From contig JAPLPO010000024.1 of NCBI GenBank assembly GCA_026400155.1, forward strand, positions 44,053 to 76,052: 32,000 bases of DNA, read 5' to 3'. Positions 12,878 to 15,277 of this stretch are shown in pieces (within the stretch, counting starts at the first letter, position 1; each line of letters opens with the position of its first letter). The notes below the pieces were generated by a model. It did no database searches. It worked only from the letters and a program-made list of their open reading frames with translations, and was not told where the DNA came from. The stretch is from Burkholderiales bacterium (GTDB lineage: Bacteria > Pseudomonadota > Gammaproteobacteria > Burkholderiales > Burkholderiaceae_C). The translations under genes were made by a program, and so were the position numbers.

Positions 12878-13825
12878 TTGGTGTCTCAGTACACCACGCA
12901 GTTGTTGATGCCAGAAGTTGATGCGTGTATTGATTTAATTCAGCACACTAACTACAGCATTCCAACGCTACAGTACGGTGAGCGTGTACTGATACAGCGT
13001 GAAGACAGTGGCTATCGCGGCGTTGGTGCTGACGCTTACGTGTTTACGGAAAAAGACTACGTTGACGGATACGAACCGGAAACCTACACGCTACCAGACG
13101 CAGATTTCAACGCAACGTTAAGCAATGAGCAAGTACAGCGTCTAAACAAAATAAACGAACTGCTGCGTCGCTTTGTAAACGGACTCAGTGTCAGTGACAA
13201 ACAAATCAAGAGTGTGCTGGACGCAGAGCAGTACAGCGAATACAGCAACGCACTCACAAGCCAACAGCACTTGAGCGAAATCACCTACGGTGACGGCGAG
13301 CCTAGTACGTTGCGTCCGTACAAGACTTGGGTAAAGCAGGGTGACTTTGAGTACAACAAGTACGATCGTATGAGTTCGTCACGCAGCAGTGGACGTGCCA
13401 AATACAAGTCAGAAACAATTGACCGTGTGTACAACAAGTCTGACGGCTTCTACGAACGTGCGTTGGAATGTTTAGAAGAACTCTGGGGTATTTCAACAGG
13501 TTACGAGCAGCATCAACTACAGAAGTGGATGGACAGAGACATTGACTTTGATGCTGGTATGGAAAGAAAAATCGGCATTGGACCTGTGCTCATTCCACGT
13601 GTTCGCGGCAGTCGTAGTAGCAACGCACTTGACAGCGGTTTACCGAAATTGAGCAAACGTCTAAAACGAAAAGAGTGTCAGTTGTTGGCGTTGCGTGACG
13701 CTGCTTGGAAGTTGGCGTTCAAACCAGATGATGAAGCGGAAGTTAGTCCGGAAGATACGTTGAAGTTGCGAGAACGGATTGCGAAAATGCGTATTCAACG
13801 TAACATTAACACTGAACGTGATTAA
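12878..13825 (+). CDS. Hypothetical protein (315 aa), no recognised domain
   Basis: This is a long ORF with island-typical codon usage. The start is unclear (TTG 12878, GTG 12881 or ATG 12908) and has no obvious RBS. Its stop codon overlaps the stop codon of the convergent recombinase gene within TTAA at 13822-13825. Confidence 0.6.
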   Translation: MVSQYTTQLLMPEVDACIDLIQHTNYSIPTLQYGERVLIQREDSGYRGVGADAYVFTEKDYVDGYEPETYTLPDADFNATLSNEQVQRLNKINELLRRFVNGLSVSDKQIKSVLDAEQYSEYSNALTSQQHLSEITYGDGEPSTLRPYKTWVKQGDFEYNKYDRMSSSRSSGRAKYKSETIDRVYNKSDGFYERALECLEELWGISTGYEQHQLQKWMDRDIDFDAGMERKIGIGPVLIPRVRGSRSSNALDSGLPKLSKRLKRKECQLLALRDAAWKLAFKPDDEAEVSPEDTLKLRERIAKMRIQRNINTERD

Positions 13826-14394
13826 ACCAACTCAACAGCACTACGTTTTACATCATCGTTTACAAAAACATATTTTTGCGTTGTAGTTATGGATTTGTGT
13901 CCCGCAAGTGCGGCAAGTACAAATACAGAAACACCTTTGCCAGCAAGTGAAGTTAGAAACGTCTTGCGTCCACTGTGCGAACTGGCACCTTTAACTCCTG
14001 CGTTTTTATACATCCAGTAAAAGTACTGCGTCAACGTGTTGGCAGTGAACGCACATCTTGGACCGCGATGTGTAGTGAACAGTGGCTGTTCTGACTCAAA
14101 CCATTTGCGTGATTGGATGTATTCAGCAAGTTCTATACGCACAGCATTGTTTAGGAACACGGTGCGAGCGTGTCCGTGTTTTACTCGTTCAGCAGCAAGC
14201 AGAACTTCGCTGCGTATTGTTCCGTCAGCATCAAGTACATCACTCAACTTCAAATCAGCAACTTCGCTGACACGCAGTCCTGCGTTCGTGGTTAGCAGAA
14301 ACATAACGCGATTTCGCATTGCGTTTGCGTTTTGACTGATAAAAGCAAGTGCTCGTTCAATCTCTGCGTGTGTAAGTGATTTTGCTGCTGCCAT
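13822..14394 (-). CDS. Short (190 aa) catalytic-domain-only tyrosine recombinase with FimB/FimE-like architecture
   Basis: RBS AGGAGA lies upstream of the ATG. A full catalytic set is visible:
- Arg in NAGLRVSEV
- Lys in ERVKHGHARTVFL
- H-x-x-R in SHSGRKTF
- His and Tyr in GHKSITTTQKY

The N-terminal SLTHAEIERAL parallels the FimB segment FLTHSEIESLL. There is no N-terminal core-binding domain. Confidence 0.85.
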   Translation of the reverse strand: MAAAKSLTHAEIERALAFISQNANAMRNRVMFLLTTNAGLRVSEVADLKLSDVLDADGTIRSEVLLAAERVKHGHARTVFLNNAVRIELAEYIQSRKWFESEQPLFTTHRGPRCAFTANTLTQYFYWMYKNAGVKGASSHSGRKTFLTSLAGKGVSVFVLAALAGHKSITTTQKYVFVNDDVKRSAVELV

Positions 14395-15277
14395 TTGTAC
14401 TCTCCTAATAATGTTGTTGTTTTAAGTATGTGATCTTTGGTGTTGGTTGGACAAGTAAGTCCCGATGTTTTGGCGGGTTGATGTGAAAACGTTTAAGAAC
14501 AACAGGTTGCGTTGCCGTCAACACAGTTCATACATTCTCTTATCTCGTATATTTACTGCGTTTGATGCGTTGTTTGTGGCATTTAGAACACAGCAGCACA
14601 TAGATTGCTTAAAACACCCTACAACGCACGTTTAACCATCGTCAGCATCGTAGCGGGCAAGACATTCAAAACGAACGCTTGTGCGTTTGATTTGATGTAC
14701 TGCTGTGCGTTGCTGTACAAAATTCATCTGTAGCAACGCAAAATCTGTGCTGTAGTTTTCAACACATCTGTAGATCTCAATACCAGGTGATTTGCTCTAA
14801 CCCCAGTTATGTACAGCAAGTGGTAAAACGAATGTATTACCTGTTTTCTGTGTTGTTATGAGCGAACTTGAAGTTCGCTTGTGTATCGCTTTCGCTCACA
14901 CAACTTGCTTCGCACATATTTGATTTATTGAAAGCCGAACACAACGCAGTTGTGTGAGGGGATGTTTGGTTGATTTAGATTAGATTGGACGCACGACGGC
15001 TATAGCACGAACATAAATGTTTAATGCTATTCGCCGCCGTGTCGTGTAGTTTGATTTGAGTTGAGTCGTTACTACACGCCTGTAACAGAGTTTTTGTGGA
15101 GACCGATGTATTGAAACTCCCAGCCGTTGTTACACGTACTGCTCTGCGGCTTCGCCTATTGTTCACACGCTGTTACAGCAACGTGTGTAGGACAGGGACA
15201 TTAGCCGTCATATTTCGCCCTGTATTTGTTCCCTTTGTTAGCAAGTGGATTATCTTGCGTTGTTTCTGTGTGTACTT
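14395..15277. other. ~880-bp ORF-poor region rich in inverted repeats (candidate invertible switch, regulatory region or ncRNA)
   Basis: No convincing ORF is present. Only 60-64-aa ORFs with no RBS and poor composition occur (the 63-aa minus-strand one I checked starts at GTG). The region holds the recombinase promoter and lies downstream of orf106 on the minus strand. It contains a perfect 19-bp palindrome and several 8-10-bp inverted-repeat pairs. Confidence 0.5.
14861..14879. repeat. Perfect 9-1-9 palindrome agcgaactt-g-aagttcgct (candidate operator or hairpin)
   Basis: Read directly from the sequence. Additional AGCGAA half-site copies lie on the minus strand at 14891-14896, with the variant AGCGAT at 14885-14890. 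Confidence 0.9.

Follow-up and report, generated by a model that had tools for sequence, protein, structure and literature searches.

A pseudoknotted RNA of phages and small genomic islands upstream of a short tyrosine recombinase gene

We analysed a 32,000-nucleotide stretch of DNA from a Burkholderiales bacterium (assembly GCA_026400155.1, contig JAPLPO010000024.1, positions 44,053 to 76,052 of the forward strand; referred to below as the window, in which position 1 is the first letter). On its minus strand, a gene for a 190-aa tyrosine recombinase is preceded by a gap of 883 nt (14395-15277) that holds no consistent open reading frame (ORF), and the gap is preceded by a small gene, orf106. 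The distal part of the gap, which we call RNA-A, folds into a conserved structure and is an RNA class not found in Rfam or in literature searches. RNA-A occurs without the recombinase and the recombinase occurs without RNA-A, and the gap therefore probably divides into two independent modules, RNA-A (15262 to ~14848) and module B (~14847-14395). The probability expressed here refers to the whole explanation, i.e., to an RNA-A/orf106 module and a module B/recombinase module taken jointly. The principal features are the following:

15278-15598, minus strand: orf106, gene of a small basic all-alpha protein (~100 aa), from coding-pattern conservation; upstream partner of RNA-A
14848-15262, minus strand: RNA-A, structured non-coding RNA (ncRNA) of ~415 nt with two pseudoknots, from covariation, covariance model (CM) hits and phage copies; core shared with phages ~15262-14975
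14395-14847, minus strand: module B, conserved non-coding segment directly upstream of the recombinase gene; most widely retained part ~14803-14395
13822-14394, minus strand: tyrosine recombinase, 190 aa, catalytic domain only, from a PF00589 match and invariant catalytic residues; core gene of the island family

Structure and strand of RNA-A

Nucleotide conservation of the gap, determined by blastn against the collected loci, extends to 22-92 loci depending on position and typically to ~30-48 in the distal part. Most of orf106 is conserved at the nucleotide level in 4-15 loci only, i.e., more weakly than the gap. The last, recombinase-proximal 174 nt of the gap align without a single indel and show no 3-nt periodicity (entropy 0.90/0.92/0.83, versus 0.72/0.43/1.23 in adjacent coding sequence), and their longest open frames vary in frame and strand between loci. 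In the remainder of the gap there are many indels whose lengths are not multiples of 3. An earlier note on this DNA, made from the sequence, had taken the gap to be non-coding, which agrees with these observations. The same note had named a decayed gene remnant at 14395-15277 as a finding that would speak against its proposal; such a remnant is not supported, there being no codon periodicity in the proximal 174 nt, no conserved frame and indels that are not multiples of 3. A blastn search of the 883 nt against the INPHARED phage and PLSDB plasmid collections returned no match.

RNA-A is built of the following elements, in the order in which they are read on the minus strand:

15241-15258, minus strand: P1 hairpin, 15258-15254 paired with 15245-15241 (compensatory variants GCAAG/CTTGC, ACGAG/CTCGT, GCGTG/CACGC, GCAG/CTGC)
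15249-15247 with 15233-15231, minus strand: PK1 pseudoknot, formed by the P1 loop (variants TCC/GGG, CCA/TGG, ACA/TGT, GTCA/TGGC)
15192-15223, minus strand: P2 stem, 15223-15218 paired with 15197-15192 around the near-invariant loop AAUAUGACGGCUAAUG (15214-15199), from covariation; 92% of cells paired, both-side changes in 5/6 pairs
15164-15187, minus strand: P3 hairpin, 15187-15181 paired with 15170-15164; 95% paired, both-side changes in 7/7 pairs
15178-15172 with 15086-15080, minus strand: PK2 long-range pseudoknot, formed by the P3 loop; 96-97% paired, both-side changes in 7/7 pairs
15087-15145, minus strand: P4, 15145-15142 paired with 15090-15087, enclosing the variable hairpin P5 and P6; from helix covariation and the alignment
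15122-15117 with 15101-15096, minus strand: P6, with the conserved loop UUUCAAUACAUCnGU; from helix covariation and the alignment
15044-15077, minus strand: domain-2 hairpin, 15077-15073 paired with 15048-15044, whose loop bears copy 1 of a repeated word described below; from helix covariation
14970-15040, minus strand: ACGGCGGC/GCCGUCGU helix, 15040-15033 paired with 15000-14993, with an inner hairpin, then word copy 2; from covariation
14851-14895, minus strand: 3' domain, comprising the GAGCGAnAGCGA motif hairpin with a GAAA tetraloop (~14895-14870) and the terminal hairpin GCGAAC/GUUCGC (14869-14851; compensatory variants GCGUAC/GUACGC, GCAAAC/GUUUGC, GUGAAC/GUUCAC)

In a 47-sequence MAFFT alignment, pairing across the 36 RNA-A base pairs, with those of the two pseudoknots counted in, is 88%, and both sides change in 30 of these pairs. 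Compensatory cells number 301, compared with 94±10 in shuffles, and none of 500 shuffles reaches the observed value. When the 3' partners were moved by 1-3 columns as a control, pairing fell to 26-48%. RNA-A thus has helices with compensatory substitutions above controls, the generic mark of a structured ncRNA. Mutual information with average product correction (APC), calculated over 63 aligned loci, yields Watson-Crick covariations in five of the top six pairs, four of them in P3, PK2 and P6; the pair 15120/15098, for example, reads GC in 23 sequences, CG in 17, AT in 13 and TA in 3. The 415-nt RNA-A sequence of the window itself has a single-sequence fold z-score of -4.07.

A covariance model of the first 190 nt of RNA-A, R1, matches 62 island loci, every one on the recombinase strand. 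The match lies 840-950 nt upstream of the recombinase in all of these loci except L005, where it is a second copy in a tandem island, and L052, which carries an insertion. The excess of G-U over A-C pairs in RNA-A (133 versus 62), together with base pairs that are predominantly G-U (35/47 sequences at a P3 pair and 27/36 at a pair of the ACGGCGGC/GCCGUCGU helix), fixes the minus strand as the RNA-A strand, and the GAAA tetraloop reads correctly on the minus strand only. Elements equivalent to the 3' domain are present in the phage copies, and the 3' end of RNA-A likely lies at this domain or its terminal hairpin. In phage copies (e.g., L124:10480-10530, L116, L119), the long domain-2 hairpin bears an apical run of 7-9 U; island versions have none.

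The proposal in the earlier note of a minus-strand ncRNA between orf106 and the recombinase holds for part of the gap, RNA-A. When the window and two phage copies were searched against Rfam 15 (including GOLLD, ROOL, HEARO, OLE, raiA and group I/II introns), no match to RNA-A was obtained at the gathering score or at E <= 5-10; at the gathering score, tRNA-Phe is all that Rfam finds in the window. Literature searches on RNA-guided tyrosine recombinases and on new phage RNAs gave nothing relevant.

RNA-A, its small basic protein and its twin words

To find RNA-A outside the islands, the 16-mer of the P2 loop was used as a probe. It retrieved 27 IMG/VR contigs, 15 of which were confirmed with R1 at 44-165 bits. 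By tblastn, 14 of these 15 contigs have no homologue of the recombinase, of orf106 or of the DUF6641 gene, and at least one of the 14 carries tail-fibre genes. The covariance-model searches gave 62 island loci and ~20 phage loci in total. When a profile of the whole 872-nt region was used, phages were found to share positions ~4-300 and a few to share positions up to ~410, which corresponds to window 15266 to 14975 or 14860. Conversely, 16 recombinase loci with ~five distinct upstream variants lack RNA-A and yet have module B. A specific link between RNA-A and the recombinase is therefore not supported, as each occurs without the other. RNA-A is followed immediately by an HNH_3 homing-endonuclease gene in a siphovirus-like contig of marine (TARA) origin (L126:10702-11154, L127:4590-4877).

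The gene that does accompany RNA-A is orf106, a genuine gene conserved in coding pattern. In 14/14 recombinase-less IMG/VR contigs, a same-strand ORF of 67-120 aa with a very basic C-terminus ends at the start of the RNA or 25-40 nt inside it. Five of these ORFs (in L101, L121, L119, L111 and L107) can be aligned collinearly with the orf106 proteins of the islands; their identity to orf106 is 13-27%, and W16 and G21 are the only invariant residues in the alignment. An LQAxxxA motif and an R/K-rich tail are common to most, not all, members of the family. The ORFs before RNA-A in the remaining IMG/VR contigs resemble different families. In the opposite direction, a profile search with orf106 produced 64 clusters without a Pfam domain, several of them on phage contigs of 16-32 kb. 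Six loci from three distinct phages were fetched through three orf106-like proteins, and in 6/6 the R1 match begins inside the end of the ORF and a gene-free gap of 360-560 nt follows the protein. The phage genomes at these loci are either siphovirus-like, with an SPP1 portal, terminase and tape measure, or podovirus-like, with a T7-type connector; TARA Oceans is the source of one. Linkage of orf106 and RNA-A is, in other words, reciprocal, and it extends across islands and siphovirus- and podovirus-like phage contigs. An AlphaFold2 model of the orf106 protein is all-helical, with a pLDDT of 75.

Six related islands lack both orf106 and RNA-A. In these, the slot between the DUF6641 gene and module B is occupied by another ORF-free segment of ~650 nt, whose coordinates in the six-sequence alignment are as follows:

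L072:1290-1910, ~650-nt alternative segment
L046:1205-1860, same segment
L026:1030-1770, same segment
L076:1110-1850, same segment
L080:240-965, same segment
L048:1330-1985, same segment

RNAalifold assigns this segment -108 kcal/mol and 22 pairs with both-side changes (from six sequences only), and it may be a second, unrelated large structured RNA. In other islands the slot holds ORFs of 177 or 541 aa; in the clade L007-L012 (65% identity), an ORF of 136-177 aa takes the place of the RNA upstream of module B. Since the slot holds other RNA or ORFs elsewhere, orf106 and RNA-A behave as exchangeable cargo of phage origin. We propose that they constitute a two-part module of phage origin, the two components of which would be co-transcribed and would then assemble into a ribonucleoprotein. 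Because the module occupies a variable cargo slot, it would act in conflict between phage or satellite and host; swapping of large RNAs and ORFs in one slot is a pattern typical of conflict and cargo hotspots in satellites. A conserved GCTAAATAAnTGT abuts the ATG of orf106 (window 15598-15625, minus strand), no ribosome-binding site (RBS) is visible, and a TAAATA box is present ~5 nt upstream, which suggests that the orf106 mRNA may be leaderless and originate in the divergent DUF6641/orf106 promoter region.

Every RNA-A compared, whether from a phage or an island, carries one 6-9-nt word twice, in direct orientation. In the window the two copies are:

15051-15057, minus strand: word copy 1, AAAUCAA, in the domain-2 hairpin loop; from word analysis
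14970-14976, minus strand: word copy 2, after the GCCGUCGU helix; from word analysis

The words are lineage-specific (examples are AGUUCAAG, ACGCCAAGC, CUUCAAGCA, CAUCCAAG, UUGGAUG, GGUAAAG, AAAUGAA, AAAUGAG, GACCAGU and CCGUAAU). Over 16 word classes, the longest common string averages 7.5 nt within one RNA compared with 4.9 nt between RNAs, and 0/20000 permutations match the observed within-RNA total. The word is confined to its two RNA sites in most phage contigs, with 0.02-0.3 copies expected; three shorter, 7-nt words are also found elsewhere. That the two words covary in identity implies a common partner, which may be a nucleic acid or a dimeric protein. The two exposed copies would contact this partner either by base pairing with a nucleic acid or as sites for the subunits of a bound protein dimer. 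Within the 3' extension of RNA-A, at window 14926-14920, there is a third occurrence of the island word AAATCAA. Word copy 1 and module B (14698-14688) have an 11-nt string, TCAAATCAAAC, in common. The module-B motif stays TCAAATC across loci while the RNA words change, and the TCAAATCAAAC match may be a coincidence.

A more far-reaching proposal, which we put forward tentatively and consider rather unlikely as it stands, is that RNA-A and the basic protein represent a new class of phage and satellite ribonucleoproteins, in which the words would be programmable segments that base-pair with a nucleic-acid target in trans (RNA or DNA of the host, or of a helper or rival phage). If true, the RNA guidance involved would have no relation to CRISPR, OMEGA or bridge-RNA systems. 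In islands, the RNA-A ribonucleoprotein might also work together with the recombinase encoded next to it, an enzyme without a core-binding domain.

Module B, the recombinase and the host island

Module B is present in every related locus checked, even in those where another large RNA or ORFs replace RNA-A. Its last 25-50 nt before the recombinase are common to ~90/92 loci, and loci without RNA-A keep the last 285-505 nt (nhmmer profile positions from ~365, 467 or 583 through 870). The earlier note had made its proposal depend on the gap being conserved beside homologous recombinases; this is the case for the proximal half, in every related locus checked, and not for the distal RNA half. Recognizable features of module B are an RBS, AGGAGA, just upstream of the recombinase ATG, a CCCG/CGGG hairpin followed by UUUC, and a weak -35/-10-like pair (TTGTCC 14454-14449, CATACT 14430-14425). 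When RNAalifold was applied to two module-B blocks, it returned 0 consensus pairs, and APC-corrected mutual information on 72 module-B sequences gave top pairs that are not Watson-Crick. A k-mer search revealed just a weak recurrence, CAAATCA(C), which does not covary with the RNA words. In L052 (2217-3244), an insertion of ~1 kb splits module B at profile position ~545 and places RNA-A 1.9 kb from the recombinase. We propose that module B would be a leader or regulatory region belonging to the recombinase gene, and possibly a DNA substrate of the enzyme as well; local structure or an RNA-level role is possible.

Residues 6-179 of the recombinase match positions 2-169 of the 172 of PF00589 (Phage_integrase) with E = 5.7e-28 and 98.3 bits (cutoff 27.1). 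The protein shows the R...K...HxxR...H/W...Y pattern that defines the tyrosine recombinase superfamily (PF00589), and R41, K72, H140-x-x-R143, H166 and Y175 are unchanged in 25 homologues with 65-89% identity. Nothing precedes the catalytic domain, i.e., the N-terminal core-binding domain is absent. A protein search yielded 2630 homologues, and the top 120 are nearly all of 189-199 aa, mostly exactly 190; the shortness of the recombinase is therefore native and not the result of truncation. The description in the earlier note of a complete, catalytic-domain-only tyrosine recombinase with FimB/FimE-like architecture is confirmed by these data. Its placement in the FimB/FimE family is not: the FimB/FimE-type NCBIfam models NF007370 and NF007371 score 33.5 and 23.8 bits, with cutoffs of 221 and 222, and are outscored by Xer models (XerA, NF040815, 89.9 bits with a cutoff of 220; XerC, 65.3 bits with a cutoff of 335). 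Xer profiles are matched in their C-terminal part only (XerA positions 94-257 of 263), and when tested against the NCBIfam models, the recombinase shows neither the SAM-like core-binding domain nor an above-cutoff score expected of an Xer protein. The nearest solved structure is PDB 4a8e, deposited as a probable tyrosine recombinase XerC-like protein (E = 1.8e-12). Homologues with 35-47% identity are encoded by Azospirillum and Legionella plasmids and by Caulobacter phiCbK-like phages; the Azospirillum plasmid homologue has 190 aa, is 47% identical and has an upstream gap of just 217 nt.

We propose that the recombinase would resolve or process the excised element and not invert a promoter; by analogy, multimer resolution is a plausible role in the case of an excising circular element. 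The recombinase gene and a convergent gene for a 315-aa protein (12878-13825, plus strand) overlap by 4 bp at their 3' ends (window 13822-13825). The same overlap recurs in L005 and beside the Azospirillum homologue, whose downstream protein is unrelated to the 315-aa protein; the latter is kept within islands (41% identity) and is absent beside the Azospirillum homologue.

The earlier note had assigned these genes to an island, correctly, as judged from two perfect direct repeats:

10442-10486, plus strand: attL, 45-bp direct repeat, which is the 3' part of tRNA-Phe (10411-10486); left boundary of the island
16831-16875, plus strand: attR, identical to the 45-bp attL repeat; right boundary of the island

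The repeats enclose a low-GC island of 6389 bp, the first gene of which encodes a 400-aa integrase distinct from the 190-aa recombinase. Related elements come nearly all from lake (freshwater) metagenomes, a Limnohabitans metagenome-assembled genome (MAG) being the sole genome match. The related contigs are often island-sized, and integration occurs at tRNA genes for Phe, Lys, Cys and Leu. The islands have a gene order in common. It starts with the integrase, small ORFs and a 98-aa protein, continues with a 290-315-aa protein encoded convergently to the recombinase, and then passes from the recombinase across the gap to a divergent DUF6641 gene. The island proteins gave no match to PADLOC defence-system models. 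The 98-aa protein (window 12568-12864) has an Ala/Glu-rich helical N-terminus and a Lys/Arg-rich tail, and its sole match is phrog_28387, of unassigned function; in some loci, its gene and the recombinase gene have identical first 14-16 nt. In L005 there are two tandem islands, and the second RNA-A copy lies 6.7 kb downstream of the first (L005:13793-14282). Contig L050 (6857 nt) has a terminal direct overlap of 123 nt, which fits a circular (excised) form or a tandem array. In L007-L012, the island neighbourhood includes a HipA/HTH toxin-antitoxin pair, a DDE transposase and an Asp-protease/PDZ protein.

Alternative explanations and comparison with known systems

In a FimB/FimE-type switch, which the earlier note had put forward as a candidate, the recombinase would flip a promoter segment bounded by inverted repeats inside 14395-15277 and make neighbouring genes phase-variable. 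Its size and catalytic-domain-only architecture, the end-to-end alignment of residues 6-179 with NF007370 positions 12-180 of 200 and the long non-coding region adjoining the gene fit this proposal. We nevertheless find the switch hardly credible. In addition to the low invertase-model scores given above, blastn of the 900-nt upstream region returned 0 minus-strand matches in ~90 independently assembled loci (these are assemblies, from which a rare inversion could escape). The inverted-repeat pairs seen in the gap by the earlier note are real; the recurrent ones, however, are covarying RNA hairpins (P3 and the domain-2 hairpin) and not recombination cores, and no bounding inverted repeats are positionally conserved in 51-68 loci. 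Nor do perfect inverted repeats of >=13 nt, sought from -3 to +2.5 kb around the recombinase start, keep their positions between loci. The sole recurring long-range inverted repeat, found in 3/68 loci, is the ATGGCAACAGCAAA ('MATA') start shared by the recombinase gene and the 98-aa gene. No phase-variable target gene is adjacent. An explanation that we also regard as unlikely, though less so than the switch, is that the whole 883 nt is one cis-acting structured leader or riboregulator of the recombinase mRNA, with RNA-A and module B parts of the same RNA. The genes and the two modules do share a strand, uninterrupted by a strong promoter or terminator, both halves fold better than shuffled sequences (z = -4.07 and -3.85), and the arrangement is kept in 62 loci. 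A single leader is difficult to reconcile with RNA-A in phages that have no downstream recombinase, with module B and the recombinase in loci that have no RNA-A, with the ~1-kb insertion that splits the region in L052 and with the lack of covariation in module B.

It could also be imagined, by analogy with the bridge RNAs of IS110, that RNA guides recombination: the twin words of RNA-A, or a module-B RNA, would supply DNA-site recognition, and the words would hold two DNA partners that share a core. A recombinase without an N-terminal DNA-binding domain, a large RNA directly upstream of its gene as in IS110 elements, two exposed copies of a hypervariable word that would suit a two-site guide, and the TCAAATCAAAC match between word copy 1 and module B all agree with such a scheme. 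We judge it very unlikely, since RNA-A and the recombinase are each found without the other (RNA-A commonly so in phages), the TCAAATC of module B is constant while the words change, the words are uncorrelated with the integration tRNA and no complementary targets were found in the contigs. Equally improbable, in our opinion, is a role of the conserved fold as DNA, such as that of a single-strand origin, packaging signal or oriT in the island and phages. The fold is situated in mobile DNA, in both phages and islands, and module B has the look of an element acting at the DNA level. An RNA, however, accords with the two pseudoknots, the GNRA tetraloop, the dominance of G-U pairs and the placement directly after an ORF, strictly on the same strand, and the hosts are double-stranded DNA tailed phages of different morphotypes in which the element occupies non-equivalent genome positions.

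The explanation that we favour, an RNA-A/orf106 module beside a module B/recombinase module, has several results to contend with. Covariation by itself cannot formally separate RNA from folded single-stranded DNA. A sigma-70 consensus scan of the region detected no promoter, and the ends of RNA-A, its promoter and its co-transcription with orf106 are predicted from the sequence. Binding of the orf106 protein to RNA-A is a suggestion drawn from synteny only, and a comparison of the orf106 AlphaFold2 model with the PDB gave no fold match (best E = 3.8). The reverse complements of the words are not enriched in the contigs, where no partner was found, and there is no correspondence between the words and the integration tRNA. 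The module-B sequence of the window folds better than shuffled, with the z-score of -3.85 cited above. Finally, a conserved core-type palindrome (9-nt arms, 5-9-nt spacer) was sought across loci as the DNA site of the recombinase and none was found; the search returned RNA hairpins only. These points weigh against our explanation, and the functions proposed for RNA-A, module B and the recombinase are ones that we infer.

The recombinase resembles the FimB/FimE/MrpI invertases (NF007370, NF007371) in being of ~190-200 aa, in consisting of the catalytic domain only with a complete R-K-HxxR-H-Y set and in aligning over the full length of the profile. It differs from them in scoring roughly one-seventh to one-ninth of the family cutoffs, in having no flanking inverted-repeat pair, no inverted variants in ~90 loci and no fimbrial or phase-variable target, and in being part of a small tRNA-integrated island beside a separate full-length integrase. 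Its best sequence matches are Xer-type recombinases (XerA, XerC/XerD) and catalytic-domain recombinases of plasmids and phages. Unlike Xer proteins, it has no SAM-like core-binding domain, falls far below equivalog cutoffs and has no identified dif- or cer-like core site.

RNA-A, in turn, can be compared with three systems. GOLLD and ROOL, reportedly described by Weinberg and co-workers in 2009 and 2017, are said to share with it a long pseudoknotted fold, a location in phage or prophage-like DNA and lake metagenomes, and an unassigned function. Unlike them, RNA-A has no Rfam match, is shorter (~300-415 nt), contains twin identical hypervariable words and, in the loci examined, invariably follows a gene for a small basic protein. 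With the bridge (seek) RNAs of IS110/IS1111 elements, RNA-A has in common that it is a structured RNA directly upstream of a mobile-element recombinase gene and has two exposed variable segments. The enzyme here, however, is a tyrosine recombinase and not DEDD/RuvC-like, RNA-A is 2-3 times longer and mostly occurs without a recombinase, and its segments are direct copies of one word where bridge RNAs have distinct guides for target and donor; no matching DNA targets were found. The N protein of phage lambda, which acts with boxB/nut RNA, is a small basic phage protein of ~100 aa paired with RNA elements that are the same within a phage and different between phages. The likeness of orf106 and RNA-A to this pair is an analogy from general knowledge. 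RNA-A is a pseudoknotted RNA of ~400 nt and not a set of 15-nt hairpins, the basic region of orf106 is C-terminal, there is no sequence or fold similarity, and there is no evidence for antitermination.

To our knowledge, bacterial and phage RNAs of more than ~300 nt with a complex fold are rare, with about a dozen classes known, and for almost every one of these classes a role as ribozyme, ribonucleoprotein scaffold or guide RNA has emerged. Rfam 15 does not contain RNA-A, which is present in tailed phages of both freshwater and marine origin as well as in small tRNA islands. RNA-A offers experimental handles in the form of a dedicated ~100-aa protein partner and an identical, lineage-specific word pair that invites reprogramming. 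For annotation, a short tyrosine recombinase gene beside a long gap should not be assigned by default to a fim-like switch. The recombinase of this study, together with its 450-nt upstream module, represents an uncharacterised core function in a widespread island family of lake bacteria.

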